From the IMG/VR virus record IMGVR_UViG_3300014204_007611: 64,000 nt of DNA; one strand, written 5' to 3'. Origin of the DNA: a virus. The position numbers and the translations under genes are program-made. Numbering within the stretch: position 1 is the first letter of the stretch; each line of letters opens with the position of its first letter. Shown in pieces: positions 3,403 through 61,957 of the stretch. The notes under the pieces were generated by a model. The model was not told the DNA's origin, did no database searches, and saw only the letters and a list, made by a program, of their open reading frames with translations.

Positions 3403-3410
3403 ATTAGTCC

Positions 3411-17117: not shown

Positions 17118-17350
17118 AATCATCAGGAAGCTTAAGATTTCAAACATCATATCTTGGAACAATTGAAATTCCACTATTAGTGGTGCGAGAGTATAAAATC
17201 AGCTATTGCGATTTTAATAGTCTGAGCCATGCCGAAAGAGACGAGCAGCGTGGTCGTGTGGAATTAAACGACGGGACTGTTTTATATTCTACTACTAATG
17301 AGATAGAAGTCAAACCAAAATGCCGCAAGAAGAATTGGCGACACTGTTAG
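17114..17350 (+). CDS. Hypothetical small protein
   Basis: 78-aa ORF joined to sbcD by an ATGA overlap. Confidence 0.3.
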   Translation: MKSSGSLRFQTSYLGTIEIPLLVVREYKISYCDFNSLSHAERDEQRGRVELNDGTVLYSTTNEIEVKPKCRKKNWRHC

Positions 17351-19077: not shown

Positions 19078-19113
19078 GGTTGTCTCCGGGTTTATTCCTT
19101 AAATACGTCTAAT

Positions 19114-24289: not shown

Positions 24290-24766
24290 TTACTCGAATT
24301 GTTGGCACCAGAATGGTGCCCCACTCGGAGAGGCATATCCAGTAAACCCAGCCTTAGTATAGCCAGGATTGAGAATATTCGCTCGATGTCCAGAGCTGCT
24401 CATCCAAGCTGCTACAACGTCATCGACGTCGGCTTGGCCCATTGCAATATTCTCACAGCGATTTGCGCAATGAATCATCGAGTGTTGGTTTGCCATCCAA
24501 CCACAATGTTGTCTCGCTTTATGGAGGACCACGATGTCGAGAACCAAAGCTCGCAGGCCATACTTCTCACGGATAGCGTTGATGGCGTTGAGCAATTTGT
24601 GCTCATGCTCATATACTGGCGACTTATCAACAGGTGCGTTCAGTGAAGCAGTAGTACTACCGCTGCCTGAACCACCGCGATGGAAAAGACGACCACCACG
24701 AGCGAACGCTGTATTGGCAGACAATGCCACGATTACACAGATACACAGGACCCATTTCATAGTCAA
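24290..24766 (-). CDS. Secreted CAP/SCP/PR-1 (YkwD-like) domain protein with a signal peptide
   Basis: N-terminal MKWVLCICVIVALSANTAFA signal peptide. AWMSSSGHRANILNPGYTKAGFTGY and HCGWMANQH are CAP motifs, and GENIAMGQ matches the YkwD consensus. Confidence 0.6.
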   Translation of the reverse strand: MTMKWVLCICVIVALSANTAFARGGRLFHRGGSGSGSTTASLNAPVDKSPVYEHEHKLLNAINAIREKYGLRALVLDIVVLHKARQHCGWMANQHSMIHCANRCENIAMGQADVDDVVAAWMSSSGHRANILNPGYTKAGFTGYASPSGAPFWCQQFE

Positions 24767-24798: not shown

Positions 24799-25266
24799 TT
24801 AAATGCCGGTGACTCGTTGATATTGTGGCTCTACCGGACTATCAGTAGAACCGAATCCCTTACTACCACGCTCGGTCTCATCGAGGGTGCTTACTTCAAT
24901 GATGGATACTTCCGGAACTGGCAATACCAAACCTTGGATTATCTTGTCGCCCGGTTTAATAAATTGAGTGTCTTCGCTCAGATTGACAAGACAAACTAAC
25001 CATTCACCACGGTAGGTGCAGTCTATCACACCAGCGAGCCGGTGAATATTCTTCTTCGCACCCATTCCAGATCTGTCGAACAAAACAACACAGTACCCTT
25101 CTTCAATTGCTGCGGCCAATCCAGTATGAAAAATATGGCATTCACCCGGCGTAAGCTGAACGTAGTCGACTGTCGTGATATCGATACCAGCCTCTAGTGC
25201 TCCAGCCTTAGCAGGAATCTCGGCGTCAGATCGCAATTTCTGGAATTTTATCTGCATACTGGTCAA
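24799..25266 (-). CDS. dut: dUTP diphosphatase (dUTPase)
   Basis: GIDITT..., RSGMGAKK, GVIDCTYRGE and C-terminal KGFGSTD correspond to dUTPase motifs 1-5. Confidence 0.75.
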   Translation of the reverse strand: MTSMQIKFQKLRSDAEIPAKAGALEAGIDITTVDYVQLTPGECHIFHTGLAAAIEEGYCVVLFDRSGMGAKKNIHRLAGVIDCTYRGEWLVCLVNLSEDTQFIKPGDKIIQGLVLPVPEVSIIEVSTLDETERGSKGFGSTDSPVEPQYQRVTGI

Positions 25267-25332: not shown

Positions 25333-25515
25333 ATGACTACAAAATCCTGTGAAGATTGCGGCGAAATAATTCCGGTTGAACGTCTTGAAGTCCTACCGAA
25401 CACTAAATACTGCGTTAAGTGTGCAGCTAATCATCCTCTACCGACACCAGATCCCAACATCTTATGTGCTAAAGCAAGTCTTAGTTCTCAGAATGGGTTT
25501 AGCCCCAAAGACTAA
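25333..25515 (+). CDS. DksA/TraR-family C4 zinc-finger protein
   Basis: MTTKSCEDCGEIIPVERLEVLPNTKYCVKCAA. ATG at 25333; the track's 25291 start is a TTG. Confidence 0.5.
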   Translation: MTTKSCEDCGEIIPVERLEVLPNTKYCVKCAANHPLPTPDPNILCAKASLSSQNGFSPKD

Positions 25516-25819
25516 TCGCAGCAAATTTCGATGAGTAGATAGCCGTATTTGAGATATCGAGACACCGACACTTATGATCGCAGCCCTTTTTAGGGTTAGA
25601 TCGCCCAGTCACAATTCTCACATTCTCAACACATCACATAAAAGAACCACAAAAGACTAAAAGAACCACAAAAGACACTCACCTGACATAAAGAATAAAA
25701 GAACCAAAAAAGAAATTCTCATTGTCCTCTTGGGTCGCAGCCGCGTTAGACGTCTTCCTCTACGATCAGCCGGTTAGACCACTCTGACCTCATTCTTCAA
25801 TTGACACATCTGTCGCAGT

Positions 25820-25850
25820 CACTCCCCGGTGCGTTTAGTGCCGGGGAGTG
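25820..25850 (+). other. Perfect 10-bp stem-loop in an intergenic region
   Basis: CACTCCCCGG-tgcgtttagtg-CCGGGGAGTG, followed by ATAGACTTTCTC. Confidence 0.4.
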
Positions 25851-26111
25851 ATAGACTTTCTCAAGTGTATTCAGTGTCTACATAAGTGCGGCTCCCTGGA
25901 TGGAGCAACTAAAGAAGAATGATGTGCCCACTTTAGACGAGACGGCCTGAAAGCCGTAAAAAGGGCAATCTGCACCTGCTGGATTCGTCAACACCAGAGA
26001 CGGTTGTAGTGCCAGGATGGCAGCCAAACAGCCACAGCAGGCCAAGCGTGATGCAAGGATGGCCAGAGGTCCTCCAGGATTTTTCGTTCGGCCTGGAGGG
26101 AGAGGAGGCGA

Positions 26112-26134
26112 GGGAAGGGGGTTTGGGGGTTGGG
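26112..26134 (+). other. G-quadruplex-forming motif downstream of a 9-bp hairpin
   Basis: GGGaaGGGGGtttGGGGGttGGG gives four G3+ runs with loops of 2-3 nt. It is preceded by the TCCTCCAGG-13 nt-CCTGGAGGG hairpin at 26070-26100. Confidence 0.4.
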
Positions 26135-26465
26135 TGTGGAAGAGAAGGAAGCTTACCTTTCAGGCTAACATTCACTAACTTCTTTTATCATGATTATCTT
26201 CCAGATTTCTGATCATTGGAAGTCTCTTGATAAGCGAGCGGTTGTAGCGGCGCAGCCGCAAAAACCGCTCAGCAAATAAACGAGTAAGGGAATGCGCAGC
26301 ATTCCCGAACAAGTAAAATCTGCTGACAATAATCATACATCCAAATAAAAAAGAAAACTGTACAAAGCTAAAGTTGTACTTATACTTCTTTTCAAATATC
26401 TGCTATCAGTATATAACTAACAGAACTACCGTCAGGTACCTCTTGTTTACTACTGCTGGACTGTA

Positions 26466-27455
26466 ATGAAAATCGCAAAAGTTATCGACCAATATGGCTG
26501 GGCGTACTATTTTCTAGACAAAGAGCAGCAACGGTATTCAAAACACAACATTTCAATATTTAGACATAATGAAGTAGTTTTAGACGGTCTTGATGCAGTT
26601 TATATTCACGGACCTGATATCTCTCCAGAAGCTCTTGAACTCTGTCATAGAGCTAAAAGCAAGGGTGTGAAAGTTATCGGCGGTCATGCCGGTCCTGTTG
26701 TTAACTTACAACCATATCCATACCTTGATCTTGCAGTAGGGATTTCACCACAGACATTTAAGTTCTGCAAAGAACACTATAAGTGTCCTACTATATTCCT
26801 GCCTGAAGGAATAGATACTGAATTCTTTATACCGATGAAACGAGACCAGCCTATATCAACTTGGTCTAGGGGCAGATGGCGACCATCAAACGAGAAATTA
26901 CCAATTCCGTCACTAGTAAAACGCAGTGGCAGATATGTTAACAACTTAATAGTTGGTTGGGCTGGAAGACGTGATAACGTCAAGAGAATGCATTTATTAG
27001 AACGCCTTGATTTCAAAATAGAAATACAATCACAGCACGGAAGACAATTTTTTGTTGAGAGATCTCTTGACCACATGCTGCGGTTTTACAATGCTATCGA
27101 TGTACTAGTTATGACTAGCTTAAGTGAATGTATGCCGCGAGTTGTATTAGAGGCTTGTTCATGTGGTATCCCTGTCGTTTGCACTGATGTCGGGTCTATT
27201 CGTATGATTCTCGACCCTGATTGGATCGTACCTGTTAACCCAGAGAAGACAGTAGTAGAAGAGATGAATAAGCGCCTGCATTCACTAGAGAACAAAGACT
27301 TGAGAAGTAAAGTCGGTTTCGATAATAGACAGAGAATTGAAAAGACGTTGAGTTGGAAAGTTTTATGTCCTTATTGGGATGCCGCTATGATAGCGGCGGT
27401 CGAGGGGAACGTAAGTAGTATCAACACCATCAACCGTCATTTTGGAATGATATGA
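26466..27455 (+). CDS. Glycosyltransferase family 4/1 (GT-B)
   Basis: MTSLSECMPRVVLEACSCGIPVVCTDVGSIRMIL matches the EX7E-type GT4 C-terminal motif. Confidence 0.6.
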   Translation: MKIAKVIDQYGWAYYFLDKEQQRYSKHNISIFRHNEVVLDGLDAVYIHGPDISPEALELCHRAKSKGVKVIGGHAGPVVNLQPYPYLDLAVGISPQTFKFCKEHYKCPTIFLPEGIDTEFFIPMKRDQPISTWSRGRWRPSNEKLPIPSLVKRSGRYVNNLIVGWAGRRDNVKRMHLLERLDFKIEIQSQHGRQFFVERSLDHMLRFYNAIDVLVMTSLSECMPRVVLEACSCGIPVVCTDVGSIRMILDPDWIVPVNPEKTVVEEMNKRLHSLENKDLRSKVGFDNRQRIEKTLSWKVLCPYWDAAMIAAVEGNVSSINTINRHFGMI

Positions 27456-29095
27456 AAGACTTAACAAAACAGGTCACTGCATTCGTTATTAGTTCCGGGA
27501 CGAACCCTAACTTTCAGCTATGCTTGGATGCATTAAAGACACAGACTGTTAAGGTGACTGTCGATATTGTTAAAGATTATAGTCCAATGTCTGTCGCTTT
27601 TCAACAGATGCTAGTACGGTGCAAGACACCATACTATGTCGAAGTTGATGAAGACATGATACTAAACCCAGATTCCATCGAGAAGATGTACGATGCAATT
27701 AAATCAGAGCAAGATCCTAAGTGCTCGATGATTGCTTATAGATTGCTTGATGTTCATATCGACTTCGTGATTTACGGTATCAAGATATACAAGTTCGATA
27801 TATTCAAAAAATATCCGTACGATCTCAGCCATATGTCGTGTGAGGTAGAACAGCTTGAAAGAATGAAAGCTGATGGTTATACTTACAAACTCAACGAGGA
27901 TGTTGTAGGGAAACATTCACCGTTATGGAATAATGAACTCATATTTGAGAGATATTTGAACTTGATGGAGAAGTTCAAGGAGTTTGGTTATGTTTGGCTT
28001 GAGAGTCTACCAAAGAAATTATTCGAGATTTTCAAGAAGGAACCGACAGAAGTCAACTTGTTCGCATTACTCGGCGCTTACACTAGTGTTGTTAGCGACA
28101 CTAGACTGCAGCTTGGAGAAAAGAATTTCACCGCAAAACGCCCGGAATACCACAGAATGCAGAGTTTTTTGGAACAGCCGACATCGGCGACTCTCTACGT
28201 TACGAACAAATGCAATCTTAAATGTAACTTCTGTTGGCGGCAGCATAAAGAGTTAGAAGATTTCCCAGATATGACGGCTGGCGTTATTGATGACCTGTTA
28301 TTTAGGTTCCCATCTATCCAGTCATTATGTGTTTGCGGGTTTGGAGAGCCGTTTTTATGTGAAAATTTCATATCGATAATGCAGTATATCAAGGCACCAA
28401 CATCAACTTTCCATTCATATGGTAAGAATTTATTTGTTGGGTTAATTACAAATGGGACGCTTGCAGCTGAACGGCTACCCTGGCTACGAGATGCTGGATG
28501 TTTACCTGATTATTTATCTGTGAGTCTTAATGCGTCAAACGCCGCCGAATACAAACGGACCACTGGCTATGATCTTTTTGAGCAGGCGCTGGCTGGTGTT
28601 CGTACTAGTGTCAGTTTAGGTGTTCAGACTTATCTGTCGCGTGTATGCGATAAAAACAATTTGTCAGATATAGCAGAATTTCTCGCATTAGCTAAGTCAT
28701 TGGGTGTTCAAGGCGTTCATCTACATAATATACTTCCACACTTCGATGATAATGAGAACAAACAGTTCTGGGATCTCGTCTTAACAAAAAATGATCAAGT
28801 CTTAATCGATGCAATTAAGACTTTACCAGACGCCGATATTGTCCTGCGATATCCAGTACTTATAGCCAAAGATGAAGTTAGAAGAAATTGTTTGTTCCCG
28901 TGGAAGACGATCGGTATTAACGGGAACAGATCAATTACGATTTGCAACAGTGTGTCACCACCAAGGAAAGAAAACGGCACAATTACCGATAGCATCATCT
29001 GGCAAAGCGAATATTGTCAGAAGTTTCGTGAAATGAAAGCAGGCGAACAGTGCGAAGCCTGTAAAAAATGCTTCCGCAATTGGCAGTACGACTAA
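27452..29095 (+). CDS. Fusion protein: N-terminal glycosyltransferase-like domain plus C-terminal radical SAM domain with a SPASM-like Cys cluster
   Basis: YVTNKCNLKCNFCW is the CX3CX2C radical-SAM motif. The C-terminal CNSVSPP...CEACKKCF cluster is SPASM-like. Confidence 0.55.
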   Translation: MKDLTKQVTAFVISSGTNPNFQLCLDALKTQTVKVTVDIVKDYSPMSVAFQQMLVRCKTPYYVEVDEDMILNPDSIEKMYDAIKSEQDPKCSMIAYRLLDVHIDFVIYGIKIYKFDIFKKYPYDLSHMSCEVEQLERMKADGYTYKLNEDVVGKHSPLWNNELIFERYLNLMEKFKEFGYVWLESLPKKLFEIFKKEPTEVNLFALLGAYTSVVSDTRLQLGEKNFTAKRPEYHRMQSFLEQPTSATLYVTNKCNLKCNFCWRQHKELEDFPDMTAGVIDDLLFRFPSIQSLCVCGFGEPFLCENFISIMQYIKAPTSTFHSYGKNLFVGLITNGTLAAERLPWLRDAGCLPDYLSVSLNASNAAEYKRTTGYDLFEQALAGVRTSVSLGVQTYLSRVCDKNNLSDIAEFLALAKSLGVQGVHLHNILPHFDDNENKQFWDLVLTKNDQVLIDAIKTLPDADIVLRYPVLIAKDEVRRNCLFPWKTIGINGNRSITICNSVSPPRKENGTITDSIIWQSEYCQKFREMKAGEQCEACKKCFRNWQYD

Positions 29096-29098
29096 ATT

Positions 29099-29764
29099 AT
29101 GACAGAGAAGTTCCAACCATTGGTTATAGTTGACGGCAAACAAAAATGGGCTCACGTCTCAATTCCGAAATGTGCATGTAGCTCTATTAGACGTGCTCTG
29201 GAGAAGCATTTTAAGTTAAAACCAGTTGAAAAATATGAGATGGTCCATAGCCGGAAATGGCCGCATGTAGAATCGATGAATTGGATTTCTGAGCTTGATG
29301 ACGACTGGTATACATGGGCTATTGTCCGCAATCCTTTTGATCGGCTTGTATCAGTTTGGCAAGAAAAATGCTGTACATCGGCGGCGAGACCAAATCTTGG
29401 ACCACAGCTGCAACGTTTAGTTGGCCAGCCTTTTGATGTATTTTGCAGGACGGTGTGTGCTATTATACAAGAACCACCAGAAGCAGATATACATCTTGGT
29501 TGGTATGTCCGAGGGATTGATACACATATAGCACCGATGTCGCATTTTCTACTTCATGATGGAAAATGCGTAGCCAAAGTCATACGAGAGATGCATGAGG
29601 TAGACTCTTTTTGGTCAGGTCTACAAAAACGGTTTGGTTTTCCGGACTTAGGACATCTCAATATTAGCGTCCATAAACCGCCAGATTGTTATTATACACC
29701 AGAGCTACGACGCCTCGTTGAAGATGCTTACAGTGATGATTTACGCCTCTGGTGGAGTAAATGA
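29099..29764 (+). CDS. Sulfotransferase (Sulfotransfer_2/carbohydrate sulfotransferase-like)
   Basis: IPKCACSSIRRAL resembles the 5'-PSB loop PKxGxT, and IVRNPFDRLVS resembles the 3'-PB motif RDPxxR..S. Confidence 0.5.
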   Translation: MTEKFQPLVIVDGKQKWAHVSIPKCACSSIRRALEKHFKLKPVEKYEMVHSRKWPHVESMNWISELDDDWYTWAIVRNPFDRLVSVWQEKCCTSAARPNLGPQLQRLVGQPFDVFCRTVCAIIQEPPEADIHLGWYVRGIDTHIAPMSHFLLHDGKCVAKVIREMHEVDSFWSGLQKRFGFPDLGHLNISVHKPPDCYYTPELRRLVEDAYSDDLRLWWSK

Positions 29765-30792
29765 TGCAGTATAAAGTTGTCAATCTTGGAGACGATCCGT
29801 GGAGCAGAGACCTTAAATATGAGTTAGTTAATTTACCACATTACAAAACAGCCAAACAGTGGATGCGAAATATCGACATCCCAATGGTTGAAACAGAATA
29901 TTTTCAATGGCTAGAATCACAATTAGTGGAAAACGGCAGCGTATGGAATGGACTATTAAGTAATAGAAAAGACATCATCAGACAATATCACAATTTTAAA
30001 CATCTATTCGAAATAGCTCCAAATTTCGTAGAAGAACAGCCAACAACACAAAAAATCGATGGTGTGTCTTACTATTATGGTCCAATTTGCGTGAAGATCA
30101 GAGGCAGTGGAGAAATCAGGATTTGGGATGGTATGCACAGGACATCGATCTTGCTTGCCACCAACCATCCAATTCGATTTACTATTTGTGAGCGTGAAGA
30201 TGGATGGCTTAACTTATTGAATAGCTTGAAAACATTATATCCAACGATGATGTATCAAGCTATCCCACATCCAGACTTCGCAGATTGGGCGTGCTGCGAT
30301 TATAGTATAAAAGAGCAGCAAATATCTAATGTCGTAATGGATAACGGCATCAAATCAATACTTGACCTTGGAAGCTGCCACGGTCATGTGCTTTATAGTT
30401 TAAGGGGTATCCTGCAGTCAGCCACAGGTGTCGAATACGATCCAGTTAGATATCGCGTCTTGAAGTTGTTATTCGACAAGCTAGGGTTTGAATCATATAA
30501 CGCTAACATTTTTGATGTCGTAAACAAAACAACTAAGCACTTCGACTGTGTTTTCGCGTTGGCGGTGTTCCATCATTTTACTAGAGAAAACACTATCGAA
30601 AAATTCAATACCCTATTAGATCGAATCAGCAGCATATCAGATATGCTGCTCTACGAATTACCGGAACCGGGCGAAGAGCAGCATGCGTGGATGTACCACG
30701 ACATAGATATGCATGCGATCATTCAGTCAAGATATAGAAACAGCACAGTCATACCGATACAAAATAGGAAGATGTTGTTGCTGCAGAATTAA
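29761..30792 (+). CDS. Class I SAM-dependent methyltransferase
   Basis: ILDLGSCHGHVLYSL is MTase motif I; VFALAVFHH is a motif II-like block. Confidence 0.5.
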   Translation: MMQYKVVNLGDDPWSRDLKYELVNLPHYKTAKQWMRNIDIPMVETEYFQWLESQLVENGSVWNGLLSNRKDIIRQYHNFKHLFEIAPNFVEEQPTTQKIDGVSYYYGPICVKIRGSGEIRIWDGMHRTSILLATNHPIRFTICEREDGWLNLLNSLKTLYPTMMYQAIPHPDFADWACCDYSIKEQQISNVVMDNGIKSILDLGSCHGHVLYSLRGILQSATGVEYDPVRYRVLKLLFDKLGFESYNANIFDVVNKTTKHFDCVFALAVFHHFTRENTIEKFNTLLDRISSISDMLLYELPEPGEEQHAWMYHDIDMHAIIQSRYRNSTVIPIQNRKMLLLQN

Positions 30793-30794
30793 CC

Positions 30795-31700
30795 ATGCCT
30801 AAACCATATAGTCTTTGCATTTTGAGTTTGAAGAACCCTAATAGTCTCAATGAGTCTAGAAGCTCAGTGCATATGGTGACATGGGCATTATGGAACGAAT
30901 TCTCCAAGATGCAGCATGTCACGCTAGAATTCCAAAGTATTTATGAGCCTTTGGTTGAAATATCGCCCGATTTTGTTTTATTCCATGCCTGCTTTGGCGA
31001 ACTTGAATTTGGTAGATTGGCGGAACTACGAAAACGCGCGAAATATAAAACAATGTCATTTATGGAGCTGCCACTATCAAAAGAGTACGTCGATTATTGC
31101 TTCATATATCTGCCGCAAACGACTTTTCAACATTGCGAGGAAATATCACTACCATGCCTGTCATCAGCACTAAATGAACATATCTCAACTAAAGTGCCCG
31201 GTAGTATCCTATTAGACCACATGTGGCCTCCATATCATAGGACACAAAAAGAGTGGAGTCAATATTTATATGAGTGGCTGTCTTCTTATCGAAAACATGC
31301 AAAATGCTCGATATCACAGTTACGTAGAGGTGGGTGCGAATCGATAGAGAAATTTCCGCCTTGGGTCACCCCGATACCAGAAAAACCATATACTGAATAT
31401 TTAGATGCCACTGCGCATTTTGAGACTTACATCTTAACACATCCAGGCAGTTACGAACACAGCGTTATTGATATGGCATATCGAGGCACACGTGTGCTTG
31501 TGCCTGTAATGCACGGACAGCCATTTATTCCGAAGTCAACAATAGAGCGATTAAATCTACAAACTTTTACTAGTAGATTAGATCTGTTGGCTTTATTAAG
31601 AGCACCAACTCAAGTTAAGCATAATCGTCAGTCATTTACTGATGCTGCTGAGATTGCATTGCGAATCGACAATTACTGTCAGAAAACCTTGGAGGCTTAA
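30795..31700 (+). CDS. Hypothetical protein within the glycan-tailoring operon
   Basis: 301-aa ORF, same strand, tightly packed between two methyltransferase genes. Confidence 0.4.
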   Translation: MPKPYSLCILSLKNPNSLNESRSSVHMVTWALWNEFSKMQHVTLEFQSIYEPLVEISPDFVLFHACFGELEFGRLAELRKRAKYKTMSFMELPLSKEYVDYCFIYLPQTTFQHCEEISLPCLSSALNEHISTKVPGSILLDHMWPPYHRTQKEWSQYLYEWLSSYRKHAKCSISQLRRGGCESIEKFPPWVTPIPEKPYTEYLDATAHFETYILTHPGSYEHSVIDMAYRGTRVLVPVMHGQPFIPKSTIERLNLQTFTSRLDLLALLRAPTQVKHNRQSFTDAAEIALRIDNYCQKTLEA

Positions 31701-42096: not shown

Positions 42097-43380
42097 ATGC
42101 CTTTCGACAAAATCAACGCAGAGGAATATATGTCAGCCAATTATCCAAATCGCAGAACTACCAAAACATATCCATTCACACCAGGCAAAAGTGGCGAGAT
42201 GGTGGTCGTGACGACCGACGGTGGCGCTGGATCATCAGGCAAGGGATCTCTTAATTCTTGGTTAGCTGACAAATACGATTTCCATCTAGCGACCAACAAT
42301 TGGATGACGAACGCTGGCCATTATACGGAACTTGACGACGGCACACGGATACTGGTCCAGCACATTCCGTCAGCATTCATCAACAAGAACACGCGACTCT
42401 ACATCAACGCCGGTGCTGCGATCGATCTGAAAACGTTGTTCAGCGAAGTAGCAAACCTCGAATCGCTCGGCTTCCAGATTCGCGAAAGATTGATCATCCA
42501 TCCGCTAGCCAACGTAATAACTGAAGAGAACAAGCAATATGAGCGTGAAACCATCAAGACTGGTAGCACGTTCAAGGGATGTGGTGCGGCTATCGCAGCA
42601 AAGGCTATGCGACTACCACAGCAAAAACTGGCGAGAGACTACGAGGAACTCCGCGAGTTCTGCACAATCGCCGATTTAACGATGGAGTTGAATCACGGCA
42701 TAGCCAAATATGGCATGCGAGTTCTTGTTGAAGGTTCGCAAGGCGTCGATCTTGACCTCAACTTCGCCGAATACCCATATTGCACCTCGCGGCAAACGCA
42801 CCCGACACAACTTGTAGCAGATGCTGGTCTTCCTGGTAGAGCAATCACAAATGTCGTCATCAATTTACGCACCAATCCGATACGCATTAGCAACGAGTCG
42901 GCTGCAACCGGTGAGCAATGCTACACCGGCAATTACTGGGAAGCAAGAGAAATCGGGTGGGAAGCTGTAGCGAAGCAGGCCGGATATGATAACTTCGATG
43001 AGTTCGTCGAAGAATACAGATATGCAATGATGACGTCCGTCACCAAGAAGGTCAGACGCATCTTCGAATTCCCGACCGAAAGGGCGAAATATGTGAACGC
43101 TCTGGCTGGCGGTCTGCTCAGAGACGGCCGCGTTCTCTATAGCCTCAACTTCATCAATTTCGTTGACAGAACCGTCAAAGGCAAGACGACATACGAAGAA
43201 GTCTTCACGCCAAAGGTTGTTAATTGGTTGCGGATGCATTTGCAGCCGGTGCTCGAAAATAATGGCACGTATGTTGCCAGTGTGAACGAAAGCTGCGATG
43301 ACTTGTCTGATATGTCGCAATTCTTCGGATTGCATTGGGTCAGAACTGGACCGAAGCACAGCCAAATAGTCGAGTTATGA
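42097..43380 (+). CDS. Adenylosuccinate synthetase (PurA) family enzyme; a divergent phage homolog that could be PurZ-like
   Basis: The protein is colinear with E. coli PurA: a GAGSSGKGS P-loop where PurA has GDEGKGK (the catalytic Asp is replaced by Ser), TNAGHY for GHNAGH, TIKTGSTFKGCGAAIA for IGTTGRGIGPAYE, VEGSQGVDLDLNFAEYPYCTS for [21 protein letters not shown], and KKVRRIFEF for GRRRRTGWLD. Confidence 0.65.
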   Translation: MPFDKINAEEYMSANYPNRRTTKTYPFTPGKSGEMVVVTTDGGAGSSGKGSLNSWLADKYDFHLATNNWMTNAGHYTELDDGTRILVQHIPSAFINKNTRLYINAGAAIDLKTLFSEVANLESLGFQIRERLIIHPLANVITEENKQYERETIKTGSTFKGCGAAIAAKAMRLPQQKLARDYEELREFCTIADLTMELNHGIAKYGMRVLVEGSQGVDLDLNFAEYPYCTSRQTHPTQLVADAGLPGRAITNVVINLRTNPIRISNESAATGEQCYTGNYWEAREIGWEAVAKQAGYDNFDEFVEEYRYAMMTSVTKKVRRIFEFPTERAKYVNALAGGLLRDGRVLYSLNFINFVDRTVKGKTTYEEVFTPKVVNWLRMHLQPVLENNGTYVASVNESCDDLSDMSQFFGLHWVRTGPKHSQIVEL

Positions 43381-46739: not shown

Positions 46740-47156
46740 ACACCTACCACTATATTAGGGAATGCTGCCATATACAAAGGTAATGGGTTGTCGCACAACC
46801 GTTTCTGTGATAAAATTTGGCAACGACGTATTTCATAATTATGGCATCGAGATTGCTCAAAGTTCCGTTCTTCGTTATTGCATACAGCGCGAAAAAGCTG
46901 TTTGCTATTGATGATTCTAAAGGCAGTAGTACGCTTCCGATTTTCACAGAGGCCGAAGCTGCAGAATTATACAGGAGGTATTTTGCAAGGAAGTTCAAGC
47001 TGAAGTTGCAAGTATTCGTTGTTGATAAGACGGAAAATGCCCTAAATCTGATCGAATGTGCAAGCCTAGCTTGCCCTTCCTTACAGAACGCGACCATCAA
47101 TCCATTCTTACCATCACCAAATATTACGCAACCGCCGTTAAGACCGATACAAAAGA

Positions 47157-47309
47157 TTATTGCGTCTCTTCGAAGTCAGTGTCGAAAGGGGCGTAGTCAT
47201 CAGAGTCCTCATAAGAAATAGGAATCCTCGGCACAGGATGTGACTGGTCGAGAGGTCCGTCATCGAGCGGAACCTCTTCCTCCTCCACGTTGTTGGGATT
47301 AGAATCCAT
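47157..47309 (-). CDS. Small acidic protein (50 aa), not in the ORF track because it is shorter than 60 aa
   Basis: Own translation: MDSNPNNVEEEEVPLDDGPLDQSHPVPRIPISYEDSDDYAPFDTDFEETQ. The ATG at 47307-47309 is preceded by TAAGGAG at an 8-nt spacing. Confidence 0.4.
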   Translation of the reverse strand: MDSNPNNVEEEEVPLDDGPLDQSHPVPRIPISYEDSDDYAPFDTDFEETQ

Positions 47310-47592
47310 GTCAGGTACTCCTTATCCGCCGTATCCGCCGAATATTCCGGTGGTCAATAATGTCGGTGGGTTTAGGCGAACATGCCTGGTCATAGATTTA
47401 TGTACTGCCGAGCCACTGACACCAGTAGAAGTTGCACAAATTGAAGACCAGATTGGGCTTGTACTTGCGAAGATCAAAGTCATACACCGTTCTGATATAG
47501 CAAATTCCAGCAGGTTCACAAAGCCACTGAGGGTCGCCTTACAATTGGAATAATCCTATAGTATTTTAACACAGTTGCACGGAAAGGATAAC

Positions 47593-48273
47593 ATGCAAGT
47601 ACGATTAATGACGTCAGAGGGAGGAGTTTCGAGCGAGCTTTACGAGATTGTCGGACCCGCAGATAGGAAGAATTGCATTTATGTATCTGATAAAGATGGA
47701 AAGCAATTGCGAGTCCACAAAGAAAGGTTGCTCCCAGCAGATGCACTTGGCAAATTGGTTGCCGTCGACCATGGTGGCAAACTCAAAGTTTCCTGCCCGG
47801 TCTGCTCAAGGATAATAGTAGCCGAGAAGGGCTTCGCCGAATGTCCCGTACATGGTAAACTACAAATAACAAGTCATGAACACCTAAACAATCCGGGCGA
47901 TGACACGTCCGCAACACAACAGGAAAAACACATGTCCAAAACAGATGCAACCACAATGGTCGATTTCGCGGTTGTCGCGACATACGGTGTTGAACTCTGG
48001 ACCAAGCAACAGCTCAAGTTCAGCGATCCGCGCACGGACGTGCAATCGCACGTTCTACTCGCCGACAATCCCGCTCGCAAACTGTGCTTCAATACCTACA
48101 ATGGAGCGCTCGGCAAGAAGAAATCGAACACCGAGGAAACCTTCCTTTCCCAACTGCAAGCCTTCAAGGATGGTGTTGCAGTGGCACCATCCGGCACATC
48201 GGTCTACCCGTTGAAGGGTACTCTGGACGATGCTCGCAAGCGTCTAGAAAAGACCGGCTATACGAAGAAGTAA
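47593..48273 (+). CDS. Hypothetical protein
   Basis: ATG at 47593 preceded by GGAAAGGA; the track's TTG start is at 47575. Confidence 0.4.
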   Translation: MQVRLMTSEGGVSSELYEIVGPADRKNCIYVSDKDGKQLRVHKERLLPADALGKLVAVDHGGKLKVSCPVCSRIIVAEKGFAECPVHGKLQITSHEHLNNPGDDTSATQQEKHMSKTDATTMVDFAVVATYGVELWTKQQLKFSDPRTDVQSHVLLADNPARKLCFNTYNGALGKKKSNTEETFLSQLQAFKDGVAVAPSGTSVYPLKGTLDDARKRLEKTGYTKK

Positions 48274-48326
48274 GCAGTATTACGCTGCTTAGCTATAGTC
48301 AGTAACGTAACAAAGGATTGTTCGCT

Positions 48327-48503
48327 ATGTTAGTATTATCTCGCAAGAAGAACGAGAGCATCGTTATCAACGACGACATCACCATTGTTGTTGTTGAAAT
48401 CCGTGGAGACAAGGTGCGTCTTGGAGTCGAGGCTCCAAAGGAAGTGCCAGTGCATCGCAGAGAAGTTTTTGATGCGATTCATCGGAATAACTCAGCGACA
48501 TGA
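48327..48503 (+). CDS. csrA: CsrA/RsmA-family carbon storage regulator homolog
   Basis: MLVLSRKKNESIVINDDITIVVVEIRGDKVRLGVEAPKEVPVHRREVF is colinear with E. coli CsrA ([48 protein letters not shown]). ATG at 48327 with an AAAGGA ribosome-binding site. Confidence 0.75.
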   Translation: MLVLSRKKNESIVINDDITIVVVEIRGDKVRLGVEAPKEVPVHRREVFDAIHRNNSAT

Positions 48504-48877
48504 TAGACGAAAACGTCATAAAACGTCGTATCGCTGCGCGTGGAAAAGCACGCACCATCATCCCGCTCATTACCGAAGAAGCTGCTGCTATCGATTCGGA
48601 TGTGCTTGAAGCATTCTGGGACGAATTGAGGAAATCTATACCTCAACAGGCACCAATCATCTCAGATCAACCCATGACTGATGAACAGGCTCGGGTATTT
48701 GGGTTCACTGAGATGCCATACGGTGAATTCAAAGGACAGCCTGTGAATAGTGTGCCCTTTAACAGGCTTGAATGGTACGCCGATTCGAAATTTCAAAAGC
48801 TTCTTGTTCGATATCTCAATAGCCCAAACATTCAACGCGAAAGAGATACAGGCGAAGGTATCATGCCATGGGAATGA
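48500..48877 (+). CDS. Hypothetical protein
   Basis: ATGA overlap with csrA. Confidence 0.35.
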   Translation: MIDENVIKRRIAARGKARTIIPLITEEAAAIDSDVLEAFWDELRKSIPQQAPIISDQPMTDEQARVFGFTEMPYGEFKGQPVNSVPFNRLEWYADSKFQKLLVRYLNSPNIQRERDTGEGIMPWE

Positions 48878-49071
48878 TAATGCCCGATTCTCCAGCGCGG
48901 CCACCAGACGTAAATGATGAGCAATGGCAAAAATTTATGAGCGAGTACCATATCACAGTATTGGTGCCGCTTGAAGTACACCTTCGCGAACGCGCTAGAT
49001 TGGTGAAAATTATTCTTGTAATGTTAATTCCGTCAGCCGCCATCATTATAGCAGCGTGGTGCGGATTATAA
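48868..49071 (+). CDS. Hypothetical small membrane protein
   Basis: 67 aa with a hydrophobic C-terminus. Confidence 0.3.
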   Translation: MGMIMPDSPARPPDVNDEQWQKFMSEYHITVLVPLEVHLRERARLVKIILVMLIPSAAIIIAAWCGL

Positions 49072-49659
49072 CGCTCTTCGCCAATTCTCCCATACAAACT
49101 CATAATCATAAGTCAAATAGTGAGTTTGACTCAAGCGATCTCTAATCGCTTGCCGCCTTGCTTCTGCATGTGGCGTAAACTGATGAAATTGTACTTGTAA
49201 ATCTCTGACTATATTGATACTACCAGTATTGATCATATGATCTAATAAGTCATATTCAGCGCCTTCGATATTCATTTTCACTAGCCGTATCTGTGGCAGT
49301 GCTTGTTCACGAATTACATCATCAATCGAAATAATTCGTATCTTCTCCTGCTGCCCGCTTTGTGACAGAATACTCGAAGCATCACCATTCACCGTGATAT
49401 TGCAAACTGTCGTTACTGGGCCGATGCCAGCACGATAAACATATGCACCAGTACCAGCTAAAGCCTTAGTTGTCATGGCGTAATATTCTGCGACTGGTTC
49501 GAACGCTATGATTCTGCAATGGTAACGATCATATATCTGGCGGCTCCAAACACCATGATATGCGCCGCAGTCGAAAACAACATCACTAATATTGATGCGA
49601 TAATCTAATCTCAAAGTCTCATCGCCATGATCAGCAAACCAACGGTCAAAATCAGGCAT
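49066..49659 (-). CDS. FkbM-family SAM methyltransferase
   Basis: VFDCGAYHGVWS...IIAFEP is the Methyltransf_21 pattern. Confidence 0.55.
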   Translation of the reverse strand: MPDFDRWFADHGDETLRLDYRINISDVVFDCGAYHGVWSRQIYDRYHCRIIAFEPVAEYYAMTTKALAGTGAYVYRAGIGPVTTVCNITVNGDASSILSQSGQQEKIRIISIDDVIREQALPQIRLVKMNIEGAEYDLLDHMINTGSINIVRDLQVQFHQFTPHAEARRQAIRDRLSQTHYLTYDYEFVWENWRRAL

Positions 49660-49660
49660 T

Positions 49661-50395
49661 TTAGTCCCTCAGTCGTAAGTCTGTGATATTCATTCCACAG
49701 TTGCGTGCATCTACCATTCTTGGCCAGTTGCCTTCAATAAATTCGACATCATGCATGCCTGTGCGATCCTCGACGAGTGGGCTTAATATACGTCCATTGC
49801 TTAAAGTAGCAGCCCACCAGCTAAACGACGAATTCGCACGCAATATTACATTAGCGTTCATCAATGACACAAAATCGTCAATAAATGGCATGCCCATATC
49901 TATCAAATCCTGAGCTTGTTGGCGGCTTCCTTCTTGAATCCATGTAATATCAGTAGGATTCAAATCGAATTTCTTACAAGCTTCAACATATGAATTTTCG
50001 CTAATTAGACAATAAATATTGCTGAGCCCAACATAATCGCCTCTACGTATATGTGCGGCTATCAGATAACGAGTCGTAAATCTGCGTTGCCATTCGTCTT
50101 TAAGACGAAACCAAGCTTTTAATCTCGACCGCGACATGAGATTTATAGCGGCTTGCGATTGAAAATACCCGCTCAAAATAATGTTAGTTCTTCCAGTCGG
50201 GATCTCATCGAATCCCGTGTGCGGTAAGTCGTAGTCAAGTGGAGGGTCTGAGATTTCGAAAATCCGCTGGCCTATCCATCCAGGAGTCAATAGCATAGCA
50301 TTCTGTGATTCGGCATAAGCACGAGCAAATGCATATTGAAAAAGTTGATTGCCAAAGCCACCAACAAACGACACGCCGACGACTTTTCGAGTCAT
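49661..50395 (-). CDS. Glycosyltransferase family 11 (alpha-1,2-fucosyltransferase-like)
   Basis: GGFGNQLFQYAFARA (GT11 motif), AAHIRRGDY (HxRRxD motif I) and SSFSWWAA (motif IV). Confidence 0.7.
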   Translation of the reverse strand: MTRKVVGVSFVGGFGNQLFQYAFARAYAESQNAMLLTPGWIGQRIFEISDPPLDYDLPHTGFDEIPTGRTNIILSGYFQSQAAINLMSRSRLKAWFRLKDEWQRRFTTRYLIAAHIRRGDYVGLSNIYCLISENSYVEACKKFDLNPTDITWIQEGSRQQAQDLIDMGMPFIDDFVSLMNANVILRANSSFSWWAATLSNGRILSPLVEDRTGMHDVEFIEGNWPRMVDARNCGMNITDLRLRD

Positions 50396-51084
50396 TATCG
50401 CCTACCAGCAAGTACCTGGTCGATATTTTGTCTCAACGGAAAGTTGCTTGGACATCCAAGTATATCTGACATACCAGCTGCCTGGTTGAACAGCATAGGA
50501 TATATACCGTATGCTTTTATCTTATTAAAATATCTAGCATATACTACGTCGACCGGGATGCCAGCACCAACATGTGACTCAACGTGTGCAATCAAACCAT
50601 CCAGACATTTTCTATTCACTGCATAGGCATGTGTTGTTAATGCGTCGTTCAATAGTAACATGTTGGACGCCACAAATTGTGGTGGTTCAGTGACAGCAGC
50701 GGGGTCAAGATTGTATCCTAAATATAGCATATCCCAATCTGGACGAATTTGTCTTTTGCCGATTCGCCAGCTGAATTGCCAATCGGAATAAAGTTCAGCA
50801 TCATCTTCAAGAATGAGAATATTACTAACATCGGCATCGCGTGCGCTCCGAAGCATAGCTAAGTGCGATTCATAGCACCCTATCCATCCAGGTTGTTTAT
50901 AAATCGCTGGGAATCGCGTAGCCTTTGTTACGCCAGCTAGATGAAGCTGTTTTTGAATACTGGCCCATCTATCTGGGCGTTTATCCAAATTTAGGATGTA
51001 GATATGGTCGAAAAAGTTCTGCATACTTTCAACCGATTCCTGATGCCATGATCGACACACTTTCTGCCAAGCCAAAATTTCCAT
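50395..51084 (-). CDS. Glycosyltransferase family 25-like (LPS/LOS beta-1,4-galactosyltransferase family)
   Basis: FDHIYILNLDKRPDRW is the GT25 N-terminal signature. Confidence 0.6.
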   Translation of the reverse strand: MEILAWQKVCRSWHQESVESMQNFFDHIYILNLDKRPDRWASIQKQLHLAGVTKATRFPAIYKQPGWIGCYESHLAMLRSARDADVSNILILEDDAELYSDWQFSWRIGKRQIRPDWDMLYLGYNLDPAAVTEPPQFVASNMLLLNDALTTHAYAVNRKCLDGLIAHVESHVGAGIPVDVVYARYFNKIKAYGIYPMLFNQAAGMSDILGCPSNFPLRQNIDQVLAGRR

Positions 51085-51650
51085 TAATAGTTACCGCCTA
51101 CACCATATCAAGCCACCTGGGTGATTATTATAAACGGTGTGTGGCAAGATTGGTACGTAGCTGTATTAAATTCGATCTGCCACATCTAGTCGTACCATTA
51201 GAGCAGCAAGGTGGCTGGGATGCTGGGTGTGCCACGAAAATTGTGGTACTTCAGCAACTATTAAAACAACTAAACCGACCATTATTGTGGCTCGACGCAG
51301 ATGCTGAGATATTTGCCTATCCGAGCATATTTGAAACAATCAACTGCGAAATGGCGTTGGCGTCTGTTTGTGGCCATTGGCTAACCGGAACGCTATATTT
51401 TCGACCTAGTGCTCTGCCATTTATTGAAAACTGGAAGCAGCGAACTGGAGTAGATGTTGACGAGGTAGCATTAGTAAAATTATATACTTCGTCGCCGAGT
51501 AATTATCGCCCGAAGATGGTGATGCTACCAGATGCTTATAATGTCGCAATCCATACCGCGTCAGATCTTAGTAATGTTGTAATCGGACACCATATGCGAC
51601 CAGATGTAGCGCCGAGTCGTGGTGTTCAAGCTAATCCTATACCAGACTAA
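51048..51650 (+). CDS. Nucleotide-diphospho-sugar transferase-like protein
   Basis: LLWLDADAEIF is a DxD-containing GT-A pattern. The start is uncertain: ATG at 51048 overlaps the divergent GT25 start by 37 nt. Confidence 0.4.
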   Translation: MIDTLSAKPKFPLIVTAYTISSHLGDYYKRCVARLVRSCIKFDLPHLVVPLEQQGGWDAGCATKIVVLQQLLKQLNRPLLWLDADAEIFAYPSIFETINCEMALASVCGHWLTGTLYFRPSALPFIENWKQRTGVDVDEVALVKLYTSSPSNYRPKMVMLPDAYNVAIHTASDLSNVVIGHHMRPDVAPSRGVQANPIPD

Positions 51651-57938: not shown

Positions 57939-58682
57939 TTATCGTCTGCTGGCGAGATATTCTGAAATCTGCTTCGCCAATTGCTTTTGATAAGTCTCGG
58001 CTGTGAATGCACCCTTTGGAGTGCTCTGCCGAACTGAGCGATTCAGCGGTTTCAGCTTACCTTCACAAATGTGGAGAATTGCACCGGTAACAGACGGTTC
58101 AGCGACTGCATCCCAAGTAACAAAACGATAGCCCTCGGTGACATAGTATGTCTCTTGACCACCTTGATCGCGAACGTCCATGTCGCCAATGCCGCGTGAA
58201 GAAATCCCAATGCGACCACGCTTGAGAAGCGTCTTCAACTGCTGGCCGTATGGGAGTTCGTCGATAATCTCGGCTTCACCATAAACGTTCTTGCCTTCCA
58301 TCCATATCTTGGTCAGAAGGTGAGAAATTCGTTCAAGGTGTATCTTGGCATCGGCTGGATGATCAAATTCACCCCAAACAGATCGGTTGGCCAAGTCTTC
58401 TTGAATCGCTTCGACAGCTTCCCTTACTACTGGTCGCGGATAGATGCGGCCATTAGCATTCAAGTCGTCTGCGACCTGGAAAATGCCGGTAACACGGGTG
58501 ATCGGTGCGCCACCAAGGACGCCTTCACCAATTACTTGTTTGGTGTCGAGAACCTTCAGCGGCCAGACATCCTGGAGCAATTGGGTGCCCTCAGGAAGAA
58601 ATCCGGTTTGTGCTGTAAGACCACGGTTAAAACTGACTTTCGGATTATACCGACCGGATTGCTGCGTTCTTGTCATCAACAT
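57939..58682 (-). CDS. Prohead core protease (T4 gp21/peptidase U9-like)
   Basis: RIYPRPVVREAV, WGEFDHPADAKIHL, RGRIGISSRGIGD and EGYRFVTWDAV are colinear with recalled T4 gp21 blocks (RLYPKRVLEKAV, LGELNHPPRANVD, GVSSRGLGS, EGYRIVNEGFKLTVGVDAV). Confidence 0.55.
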   Translation of the reverse strand: MLMTRTQQSGRYNPKVSFNRGLTAQTGFLPEGTQLLQDVWPLKVLDTKQVIGEGVLGGAPITRVTGIFQVADDLNANGRIYPRPVVREAVEAIQEDLANRSVWGEFDHPADAKIHLERISHLLTKIWMEGKNVYGEAEIIDELPYGQQLKTLLKRGRIGISSRGIGDMDVRDQGGQETYYVTEGYRFVTWDAVAEPSVTGAILHICEGKLKPLNRSVRQSTPKGAFTAETYQKQLAKQISEYLASRR

Positions 58683-58823: not shown

Positions 58824-60110
58824 CTACTGAGGAGCCGGGGTGGGTGCTGGCATCTTTGTAGCTTTAGGAGTCATATCGAGTGATAAATCTCTGGCAGCCT
58901 TAGCTGTGAGCAGGCTAATCAGGTCGATTGCGCCACCACCAGCTTGGCCATTATTACCACCCATTACGACTGATGGCACCCAAGCACCCTGATGCTGGGC
59001 AATGGCATCAGCAAAGTACTTGTTGACTGTGGTGTAAGCTTCGAGCTTCTTTTCCAATGCACCGTCAGCTTCCATCACAAGCTTGCGACGGGCGGCTTCA
59101 CCTTCACCACGGAGAGTTTCAGCAAGCTTGAATTGGGCGGCAGCTTTCGCGTCCAATTCGGCAACAGCGAGCTTTTGTGCCCCTAAAGTTTCGGCGACTT
59201 TCTTCTCTTGTTCCGCCTTTGTCACTTCCTTGGCCATAATGGTTTTCTGTTCCCATTCAGCCTTGGCGGCGTCAGCTTCACCTTGCTTAACCGTAGTTAA
59301 AGCTCTCTGCTCAGCTTCCTTAGAATTAGCCATGGCAATCTGGACTTGCATCGTGGCCTTCTGTTGTTGACTGATCTGCTCTTCAACTTGTGGGTCGTAC
59401 TTGACTTCGTTAATCGAGAGATTGAAAGCTTTCACACCGAATTCAGACAGAGGAGATGTTTCGGCACGTTTTGGCTTGCCGTCTTTATCAACCACGAGAG
59501 AAACCAGCGCGACTGTCTTTTCAGCACCGGTAATCGGGTCTTTGGTTTTCTCTTGGGTAGTCTTTGTCAGACAGATGCCATTCTGAATCTGATCTTCGAT
59601 CAAATAGAGAAGCTCGTTACGTCTTGAGGCGTAAGACTCTTGGCTACTCATGAGCGGACCGCTCATGTAAATCGACTTCTCGATAATAGTTCTGACTAGC
59701 TGCTGCTCAAGAGCGAGCTGGCTACCAAACTTCGTATGAATATCAGTCAACTTGTCGTCGGCGAGCGGGATTTCCCAAGAAATCCCGCCGGATATTGTTG
59801 CGTGCCCACCGTCATTAAATCGAATCTTAATTGATTCATCAGCGGTCTTGCCTTGATCGGTTTTTGCACTGAACCAAAGTTGGCTACGTTTTTGGTACTT
59901 CGTGACCTTACCAAATCCTTGCCATTTCACACCTGGCTGAGTATACCACGCCAGATTTCCGCTAACCGGGCTTTGGATCACCATAACCGACCCAGCATCG
60001 AGGTTCTCAAACAAACTACCAATCGATGTCAGCATCGCTACTAACACGATACCAGCTAACACTAACGCAACAATTTGTTTGTTAGTCATCACTCTCGTCC
60101 TCACTTTCAA
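58824..60110 (-). CDS. SPFH/band-7 (prohibitin/HflK-like) membrane protein with a C-terminal coiled coil
   Basis: N-terminal TM helix, SPFH core, and Ala/Glu/Lys-rich coiled coil (AEQRALTTVKQGEADAAKAEWEQK...). Confidence 0.55.
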   Translation of the reverse strand: MKVRTRVMTNKQIVALVLAGIVLVAMLTSIGSLFENLDAGSVMVIQSPVSGNLAWYTQPGVKWQGFGKVTKYQKRSQLWFSAKTDQGKTADESIKIRFNDGGHATISGGISWEIPLADDKLTDIHTKFGSQLALEQQLVRTIIEKSIYMSGPLMSSQESYASRRNELLYLIEDQIQNGICLTKTTQEKTKDPITGAEKTVALVSLVVDKDGKPKRAETSPLSEFGVKAFNLSINEVKYDPQVEEQISQQQKATMQVQIAMANSKEAEQRALTTVKQGEADAAKAEWEQKTIMAKEVTKAEQEKKVAETLGAQKLAVAELDAKAAAQFKLAETLRGEGEAARRKLVMEADGALEKKLEAYTTVNKYFADAIAQHQGAWVPSVVMGGNNGQAGGGAIDLISLLTAKAARDLSLDMTPKATKMPAPTPAPQ

Positions 60111-61132: not shown

Positions 61133-61957
61133 ATGTATGCTGGTAATATTATGGCTAAATTTCCACCAGTTGTACGAATCGAAACCACTAACGCGTGCAA
61201 TGCTCATTGCACCATGTGCCCGCATAATAGTATGCAACGCCCCATACATATTATGCCAAACGATCTATTCGAGAAGATAATCGACGAATGCTCTCGAAAT
61301 AAATTATCAGAGATACATCTGCATAACTTTGGCGAGCCTCTGCTTGATGCCAATTTAGAAGACAGGATCAGATTGGTAAAACAAAAGTGCCGAGTTTATA
61401 CGAAAATTTTCACCAACGGGTCCCTGCTCACTTCAGATAGAGCACAAAGGCTATTAGATAGCGGAATAGACGAAATCAAGATAAGCGTAGATGGTTCGAC
61501 ACCAGAACAGTTTGAAGCAACAAGACGGCCTCTTAAATGGTTAGAGGTTGAAGAGAATATCAAAGGTCTAATAAAAACACGCGATTCTTTAAAATCGAGA
61601 ACACGCATTTACGTAACATGCTGCACTAACCACAGCGCCACCTCACTTATACATTTCCCTGTTGAATTTGCACTTGGGCCAAAACACAACTGGGGTGGGC
61701 AGCATGGAAATAAAACTGACGGTAAATTCATAAAATGCAATCGCCTATGGCGAACATTTACGATATTAGTAGATGGTAGAGTCGCCCAGTGTCATGCGGA
61801 CGTCCACGGCGAGCATTGCCTTGGTAACGTTTATCAGCAGACAATCGAAGAGGTCTGGAATAGCATAGAATACAATGCCGTCAGAAACTGCCATATTAAA
61901 TCGCAGCAATCGAAGCTTGGGTTGTGTGCTAGCTGCTCGCAGTGTAGAAAGCATTAG
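61133..61957 (+). CDS. Radical SAM enzyme with a SPASM/twitch-like C-terminal Cys cluster
   Basis: ETTNACNAHCTMCP is the CX3CX2C motif; the C-terminal CNRLW...CHADVHGEHCLGN...CASCSQC cluster is SPASM-like. Confidence 0.55.
   Translation: MYAGNIMAKFPPVVRIETTNACNAHCTMCPHNSMQRPIHIMPNDLFEKIIDECSRNKLSEIHLHNFGEPLLDANLEDRIRLVKQKCRVYTKIFTNGSLLTSDRAQRLLDSGIDEIKISVDGSTPEQFEATRRPLKWLEVEENIKGLIKTRDSLKSRTRIYVTCCTNHSATSLIHFPVEFALGPKHNWGGQHGNKTDGKFIKCNRLWRTFTILVDGRVAQCHADVHGEHCLGNVYQQTIEEVWNSIEYNAVRNCHIKSQQSKLGLCASCSQCRKH

Follow-up and report, generated by a model that had tools for sequence, protein, structure and literature searches.

Why should a phage carry a gene for the bacterial post-transcriptional regulator CsrA, and on what would its product act? 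CsrA is an interleaved homodimer, with RNA pockets formed between β1 of one subunit and β5 of the other. These pockets bind GGA motifs, usually occluding the Shine-Dalgarno sequence. The gene considered here lies in a 64,000-nucleotide stretch of DNA (the window) from the IMG/VR virus record IMGVR_UViG_3300014204_007611, with its ribosome-binding site just upstream:

48313-48317, + strand: Shine-Dalgarno sequence AAGGA, 9 nt before the csrA ATG, within ACAAAGGAUUGU
48327-48503, + strand: csrA, an intact open reading frame of 58 aa that ends at T58 and is followed by a TGA stop

The translated product, MLVLSRKKNESIVINDDITIVVVEIRGDKVRLGVEAPKEVPVHRREVFDAIHRNNSAT (58 aa), spans the full CsrA core, from β1 to β5 and the start of the helix. 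It matched the Pfam family CsrA (PF02599) with 92 bits against a gathering score of 27 bits (E = 2.3e-26, model positions 1-52 of 53). It also scored above the cut-offs of two NCBIfam equivalogs, NF002469 (87.5 bits, cut-off 73) and TIGR00202 (85.6 bits, cut-off 70.1), and matched phrog_9500, 'CsrA-like regulator' (E = 4.3e-21, positions 1-56 of 65). In a search of solved structures the best PDB matches were all CsrA, RsmA or RsmE (E ~1e-14), colinear and free of gaps. The first-pass annotation had read the protein as colinear with CsrA, had pointed to a GVxxPxxV stretch and had given the gene its own ribosome-binding site. The profile search against PF02599 that it had suggested as a check bears out the first point, the stretch is GVEAPKEV at residues 33-40, and the AAGGA provides the site. 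That translation begins at the ATG of 48327 follows from the MLVLSRK N-terminus common to all homologues and from the AAGGA at a distance of 9 nt; an in-frame TTG further upstream, at 48318, directly abuts the GGA of AAGGA.

The residues that bind GGA (L2, L4, R6, K7, V40, V42, R44 and V47) are all kept, as judged from gap-free alignments to E. coli CsrA (1Y00), RsmA, RsmE and Geobacillus CsrA. The positions compared (L2, L4, R6, R/K7, V40, V42, R44 and I/V47) are those we take to have emerged from the alanine scan of the E. coli protein, in which Mercante in 2006 reportedly mapped the residues needed for RNA binding. Residue 7 is Arg in E. coli and Lys in Bacillus. R44 has been described as essential (PMC7829508, PMC7366521). 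Judged on its sequence, the phage gene at 48327-48503 is a bona fide CsrA-family gene.

The phage protein shares its fold and GGA-binding residues with E. coli CsrA and Pseudomonas RsmA and RsmE and resembles them in being short (theirs is a length of 61 aa, with no FliW-type tail), but is only ~43% identical to them. With the FliW-regulated CsrA proteins of Bacillus/Geobacillus, Campylobacter and Helicobacter it shares the MLVLSRK N-terminus, K7, I51 and N55, although it lacks their C-terminal extension beyond residue 58. Its best PDB match is of this kind: 5DMB, the Geobacillus CsrA from a CsrA-FliW complex, at ~47% identity.

The surroundings of csrA are those of a phage. The window encodes a T4-type prohead protease (phrog_207, 1e-43; Pfam Peptidase_S77), a phage-type DNA helicase (phrog_2488, 7e-100) and an SbcC-like nuclease subunit, together with many glycosyltransferases, radical-SAM enzymes and long runs of small ORFs that match no family. 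The genes that matter most for the argument are:

42097-43380, + strand: PurZ-like adenylosuccinate synthetase (phrog_1211, '2-aminooxy adenylosuccinate synthetase', 1e-46; partial Pfam Adenylsucc_synt match)
47593-48273, + strand: up232, 226 aa from the called ATG, directly upstream of csrA
48500-48877, + strand: down125, 125 aa, mostly helical, with an ATGA overlap with csrA (ACATGATAG)
48868-49071, + strand: down67, 67 aa, the last small ORF of the string, overlapping down125 by 10 nt

The order PurZ, AP endonuclease, three ORFs, up232, csrA, down125, down67, methyltransferase, GT11 and GT25 (~10 genes) recurs in four IMG/VR viral contigs, of 234 kb (L017), 269 kb (L022), 364 kb (L040) and 388 kb (L003). 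Because these syntenic relatives are viral contigs of such size, the window is probably a fragment of a jumbo-phage lineage. The PurZ-like gene is 81-93% identical in the same four contigs, and for this reason the lineage may replace adenine by 2-aminoadenine in its DNA (a Z-genome). An exact match to the CsrA protein was found on the 104,990-bp ENA metagenome contig ERZ27247350 k141_1430509, of which the window is the part from ~9.5 to 73.5 kb, and another on a 4.3-kb JGI contig. Megablast of the 16 kb around csrA against 50,697 GenBank phages gave no match, so no deposited genome is a close relative of the phage. The first-pass annotation had called the gene phage-encoded, and the prohead protease, PurZ-like gene and helicase, with the synteny, uphold that label.

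Several other genes of the window deserve mention in their own right. A 455-aa ORF at 430-1797 (− strand) matched Pfam Volactin (PF25216; E = 5e-42, 145 bits, cut-off 35), presumably a family of actin-like proteins first reported from archaea; a cytoskeletal protein of this kind, in what is probably a jumbo phage, merits a separate look. Glycosyltransferases (GT2, GT11, GT25 and phrog_3408), methyltransferases and a sulfotransferase-like ORF are unusually many (1900-5905, 17347-20712, 26466-31700 and 49066-51650), and radical-SAM/SPASM enzymes are encoded at 27452-29095 and 61133-61957. This complement suggests an extensive capacity for modifying glycans, or DNA or virions. An SPFH/Band-7 protein (phrog_11908, 1e-54) is encoded immediately beside the prohead protease (58824-60110 and 57939-58682, both − strand). 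One Pirellulales chromosomal locus (L083) likewise has a Band_7 gene, ~2 kb downstream of its csrA, which is probably a coincidence. The − strand further carries genes for a DHH/DHHA1 phosphoesterase (12695-13555), a DUF7873 protein (23061-23798; E = 1e-95), a CAP/cysteine-rich secretory family protein (24290-24766) and a dUTPase (24799-25266).

From which bacteria does this CsrA come? On alignment, many Planctomycetota MAGs (P0001, P0012 and P0089, and loci L088, L097 and L099) proved to have a chromosomal CsrA that matches residues 1-54 of the phage protein with 100% identity, and the two proteins therefore share fold, dimer interface and RNA-binding residues. From this identity we infer that the phage protein, too, would form the interleaved homodimer. 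The top matches among 5.8 billion proteins were 72-80 aa long, and those with names came from Thermoguttaceae, Pirellulales and Planctomycetaceae MAGs. When GTDB was scanned with one genome for each species, 534 relatives came up, of which the best 80 were almost all from Planctomycetota. On the strength of the identical core and of these 80 genome matches, the most likely host belongs to the Planctomycetota, of the Pirellulales/Thermoguttaceae type. The CsrA core is near-invariant across Planctomycetota, judging from the sequences compared, and hence the identity cannot name a particular host.

This affiliation changes the model for what the protein might do. The first-pass annotation had taken gamma-proteobacterial CsrA/RsmA as its reference, whereas the closest relatives are Planctomycetota CsrA proteins, identical over residues 1-54. 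Planctomycetes are among the FliW-type phyla rather than those of the BarA-UvrY/CsrB type (Zere et al. 2015, PMC4682653), and a BarA-UvrY/sRNA system, unlike in E. coli and Pseudomonas, is not expected in the host lineage of the phage (PMC4682653). The suggestion that the phage protein sequesters CsrB or RsmY RNAs loses its footing on this account, and no CsrB/Rsm-type RNA was found in the window. That it rewires carbon metabolism was likewise a guess centred on E. coli and Pseudomonas and is a poor fit to a planctomycete host.

Seven near-identical planctomycete-type csrA genes were found on contigs binned into Patescibacteria/CPR MAGs (loci L098, L110, L124, L130, L131, L146 and L151), labelled Peribacteraceae, Staskawiczbacteria, Peregrinibacteria, Saccharibacteria and Nealsonbacteria. 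GC is low at two of the seven loci (0.36 and 0.40), and in one the CsrA is short, at 59 aa. Mis-binned phage or planctomycete contigs are a possible source of these genes, as is horizontal transfer.

An identical core of 54 residues raises the question of whether csrA belongs to the phage at all: it could be a bacterial gene, on a contig that is misclassified or chimeric (as metagenomic assemblies can be), or else a passenger that was picked up lately and plays no part. Some CsrA-bearing 'viral' contigs in IMG/VR may be bacterial. The DNA argues otherwise. Although they encode the same core, the phage and host genes are only 73-81% identical in nucleotide sequence, with synonymous sites saturated. 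The GC3 of the phage csrA (0.48) is close to the mean of the window ORFs (0.44), whereas that of host csrA genes is 0.54-0.74, and DNA flanking the host genes has ~59% GC as against 44% in the window. Against its closest phage relative, L003, csrA showed 16 nucleotide differences in 15 codons within codons 1-54, all of them synonymous (dN/dS ~0.014 over these codons). Five independent contigs, moreover, have the genes in the same order, and in each of them csrA is flanked by the same phage genes. The 80 bacterial csrA loci have a conserved neighbourhood of their own, consisting of the nuo operon and a NuoI-like ferredoxin, and none of these loci shares a neighbour with the window. Taken with these observations, the bacterial-gene explanation is so improbable that we set it aside.

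Saturated synonymous sites, a phage-like GC3 and differences from L003 that are all synonymous mark csrA as a long-resident phage gene and not a recent capture. Between these two phages the neighbouring genes show only 84-89% protein identity, which makes csrA the most constrained gene of the block. On these sequence comparisons, strong purifying selection keeps the phage CsrA identical to the host protein, and such selection argues that the gene is used.

How does this CsrA relate to those already known from phages? Homologues of CsrA were reported in 30 of 2517 phage genomes (Sobrero & Valverde 2020), and a survey of GenBank and IMG/VR v3 found that phage CsrA correlates with CsrA-bearing hosts (Campa et al. 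2021). The latter study documented homologues on phages, plasmids and ICEs, one plasmid copy being functionally interchangeable with a chromosomal one, and proposed host manipulation and anti-CRISPR roles for phage RsmA homologues. At least 34 phage records in GenBank carry a CsrA annotation; most are of Vibrio phages, and all of the annotated proteins, the nearest included, are less than 60% identical to the CsrA of the window. In IMG/VR, at least 230 stretches encode close relatives of it. The known examples (PHROG 9500; Vibrio phages 219E41.x/431E4x, Providencia PSTCR8lys, Pseudomonas F116 and Burkholderia DC1) are likewise host-like CsrA/RsmA proteins on phages, proposed to manipulate post-transcriptional control in the host. 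The protein of the window differs from them in falling within the planctomycete (FliW-type) branch, in belonging to a 234-388-kb PurZ lineage and in being identical to the core of its presumed host. We found no description in the literature of a planctomycete-type CsrA in jumbo or PurZ phages. A phage-encoded CsrA is thus not the novelty that the first-pass annotation had implied, since PHROG 9500, the GenBank annotations and the surveys of 2020 and 2021 precede it. What the present case adds is the host lead, the evidence of long-term purifying selection on exact mimicry and a pattern of tail loss.

The phage protein ends after NNSAT, at 58 aa, whereas the Planctomycetota host proteins (70-75 aa) run on into a variable, low-complexity tail of ~17-20 aa. 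With every CsrA ORF extended to its stop, copies from IMG/VR viral contigs (L003-L082, n = 80) had a median length of 63 aa (interquartile range 60-69), as against 73 aa (70-75) for copies from bacterial genomes (L084-L163, n = 80). The viral copies were significantly shorter (Mann-Whitney p = 2.7e-9). Asn54 is present in 58/80 bacterial copies versus 11/80 viral ones.

Long CsrA tails have been linked in the literature to regulation by the protein antagonist FliW. In C. jejuni, CsrA 1-60 keeps FliW binding and 1-55 loses it (PMC7829508); in H. pylori, 1-63 keeps it and both 1-58 and 1-54 lose it (PMC11905337). The extension beyond residue ~60-63 that is needed for FliW binding elsewhere is absent from the phage protein. 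Since truncation to ~58 residues abolishes FliW binding in two species, the phage CsrA might escape FliW. By analogy with these species, the CsrA of this lineage could be antagonist-proof: the core stays identical to that of the host, the tail that FliW would require is shed, and the infected cell could not switch the protein off. The loss of the conserved Asn54 from most viral copies may be part of the same pattern, and the protein encoded by up232 may join the module. We regard this proposal as tentative and rather doubtful. It is weakened because the five syntenic phages have CsrA proteins of anything between 58 and 76 aa, because I51 and N55, the FliW-contact residues of the helix, are present in the phage protein, and because host tails are themselves poorly conserved. 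Residues I/V51 and N55 are critical for FliW binding in other species (PMC7829508). FliW was not matched by any of the ~45 window ORFs scanned, nor did clustering of the ORFs around the 80 bacterial csrA genes place it beside a host csrA. That the hosts may encode FliW is a statement made in the literature at the level of the phylum (PMC4682653).

The same residues bear on a different proposal, in which the phage protein is a decoy or a dominant negative that titrates FliW or an RNA sponge, or poisons the CsrA dimers of the host. Retention of I51 and N55 would suit a trap for FliW, and the identical dimer interface makes heterodimers likely. Such heterodimers, with all RNA-binding residues intact, are expected to be active and not poisoned, the 58-aa length is that of the truncation that abolishes FliW binding in H. 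pylori, and no sponge RNA is known for Planctomycetota. We consider a decoy very improbable.

The genes around csrA bear on yet another proposal, that of control of genes of the phage itself. The four genes from up232 to down67 are co-directional and tightly spaced, and on this basis they probably form one transcription unit. The downstream ORF noted at first pass as coupled to csrA is down125, which starts inside the csrA stop codon with a 4-nt ATGA overlap; its only family match was a borderline one, to Pfam QSregVF_b, and a fold search gave none. The next ORF, down67, is conserved in L003 and L040, and where it ends the convergent methyltransferase and glycosyltransferase genes of the − strand begin. 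In the product of up232 an SH3/Tudor/KOW-like barrel at the N-terminus is accompanied by a CPxC...CPxHG zinc ribbon and by a C-terminal domain in which the motif RKLCFNTYNGALGKK is invariant; the protein matched nothing in Pfam, PHROG or NCBIfam. It is a lineage-restricted protein: its family comprises only 26 clusters among 5.8 billion proteins, all on phage-like contigs. A homologue lies directly 5′ of csrA in eight viral loci (the window, L003, L017, L022, L040, L039, L009 and L015), in three of which it shares only ~30% identity with up232. As the adjacency persists even at this divergence, up232 is a possible functional partner of the phage CsrA.

Between the two genes lies a further element:

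48271-48291, + strand: 8-bp hairpin overlapping the stop codon of up232

It is kept in L003 with two compensatory changes from G-C to A-U. The + strand has no run of T after it, and for this reason the hairpin probably acts in RNA stability or attenuation between up232 and csrA rather than as a clean terminator. Apart from this hairpin, the fold of the csrA leader (48268-48345) showed no significant structure (z = −0.9). The AAGGA/CAAGGAU leader is conserved in the four syntenic relatives, where it reads GACAAGGAUGGU or GACAAGGAUUGU; in the window, ACAAAGGAUUGU resembles what we take to be the high-affinity SELEX consensus for CsrA. The leader is therefore a possible autoregulatory site. Because the leaders of host csrA genes have a similar AAGGA, it is plausible and not specific evidence for autoregulation. 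GGA-containing Shine-Dalgarno sequences are ubiquitous in the phage and its hosts, so that motif counts discriminate nothing.

Divergent from this operon is a small and very acidic 50-aa ORF (MDSNPNNVEEEEVPLDDGPLDQSHPVPRIPISYEDSDDYAPFDTDFEETQ; 47157-47309, − strand) with a strong TAAGGAG ribosome-binding site, called as a gene on the source contig. Nucleic-acid mimicry by its product is conceivable.

Does the phage encode an RNA that its CsrA would bind, or that would sequester CsrA? Rfam returned no family, and no Csr/Rsm sRNA, for the whole window at the gathering score, none for the GGA-dense gap described below at E <= 1, and none for four related loci. A sliding count of GGA gave two dense spots, at 47151-47400 (− strand) and 25951-26170 (+ strand). 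As a sponge RNA the first was rejected, its density being explained by the ribosome-binding site and coding sequence of the acidic 50-aa ORF. So was the second, which folds no better than shuffled sequences (z = −0.94) and is kept in only one other phage; scans of viral and metagenome sequences added just one duplicate. It lies within the following region:

25517-26465: non-coding gap of 950 nt, with a TraR/DksA zinc-finger ORF (25333-25515) on one side and a glycosyltransferase gene on the other

The block at 25951-26170 has 10 GGA per 200 nt, where the mean of the window is 2.1, and contains a UGCC-AGGAU-GGCA hairpin, a CAAGGAUGG site, an 8-bp CCUCCAGG/CCUGGAGG hairpin and a purine tract. 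Positions 25891-26041 are 79% conserved in one related phage, L166, where two hairpins show compensatory changes. The element may be an RNA that CsrA binds, or it may have nothing to do with CsrA and be a regulatory or origin region. At the equivalent position three other relatives (L164:2600-2900, L165:2620-2920 and L167:2240-2330) have a different conserved non-coding element, ...CGACGGGAAAAGCGGGGCCGGUAUAUCCGGAACAGGACCCGC..., which looks structured and has no Rfam family at the gathering score; the closest relative has a different element in place of the GGA-dense block. The gap also holds direct repeats AAAAGAACCACAAAAGAC (two copies, with a third that is degenerate) and a G+C-rich hairpin of 10 bp, CACTCCCCGG...CCGGGGAGTG, at 25641-25680 and 25822-25852, which may be origin- or terminator-like features.

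These findings allow a weighing of the proposal that phage CsrA mainly controls the genes of the phage itself, as a temporal repressor or activator of translation with a logic like that of T4 RegA. In its favour are a leader in which a near-consensus CsrA site spans the Shine-Dalgarno sequence, the place of csrA in a conserved operon with two or three phage-specific genes, and a GGA-dense block that has a hairpin with AGGAU in its loop and that one relative has kept in part. However, the AAGGA leader is not specific to the phage, and the block is no stabler than shuffles, matches nothing in Rfam and is absent from the closest relative. The RNA-binding core, moreover, has stayed identical to that of the host and has not drifted towards a phage-specific specificity. 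We therefore judge control of phage genes unlikely as the main role.

The reading that we prefer, and hold to be reasonably probable, is that csrA encodes a functional CsrA-family RNA-binding protein of a large, probably jumbo, PurZ-carrying phage, most likely with a Planctomycetota host. During infection the phage protein would add to the CsrA pool of the cell and, given the identical interface, would probably form mixed dimers with host subunits. With the GGA-binding residues kept, it would bind GGA motifs in and around the Shine-Dalgarno regions of host mRNAs, and possibly phage mRNAs as well, its own leader included. A 'high-CsrA' translational state favouring phage production would thereby be imposed. 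By analogy with FliW-type bacteria, such a state would classically entail repression of flagellin and associated programmes; flagellin mRNA is the conserved CsrA target there (PMC7829508, PMC7366521, PMC11905337). The least certain step, again by analogy, is that the 58-aa protein may act free of the host antagonist FliW.

A special case of such host reprogramming would be the suppression of host defence. In Serratia, RsmA binds cas mRNAs and represses three types of CRISPR-Cas, and the same role has been proposed for phage homologues (Campa et al. 2021). A scan of the window showed nothing that ties csrA to defence, and we rate an anti-CRISPR-Cas function as a quite unlikely purpose of this gene.

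CsrA acts as a master switch at the post-transcriptional level, and a phage with an exact copy of the core of its host's CsrA is a clear case of regulatory mimicry. Phages that carry CsrA to manipulate their hosts are already in the literature, and the finding extends that picture and does not change it. To our knowledge, few phages are known for Planctomycetota, and the 54-residue identity offers, for this lineage of very large, uncultured phages with a PurZ gene, a lead to a host in the phylum. The shortening of the viral CsrA tail, set beside the Helicobacter and Campylobacter truncations, yields a concrete and cheaply testable hypothesis, that phage CsrA may escape antagonism by FliW.
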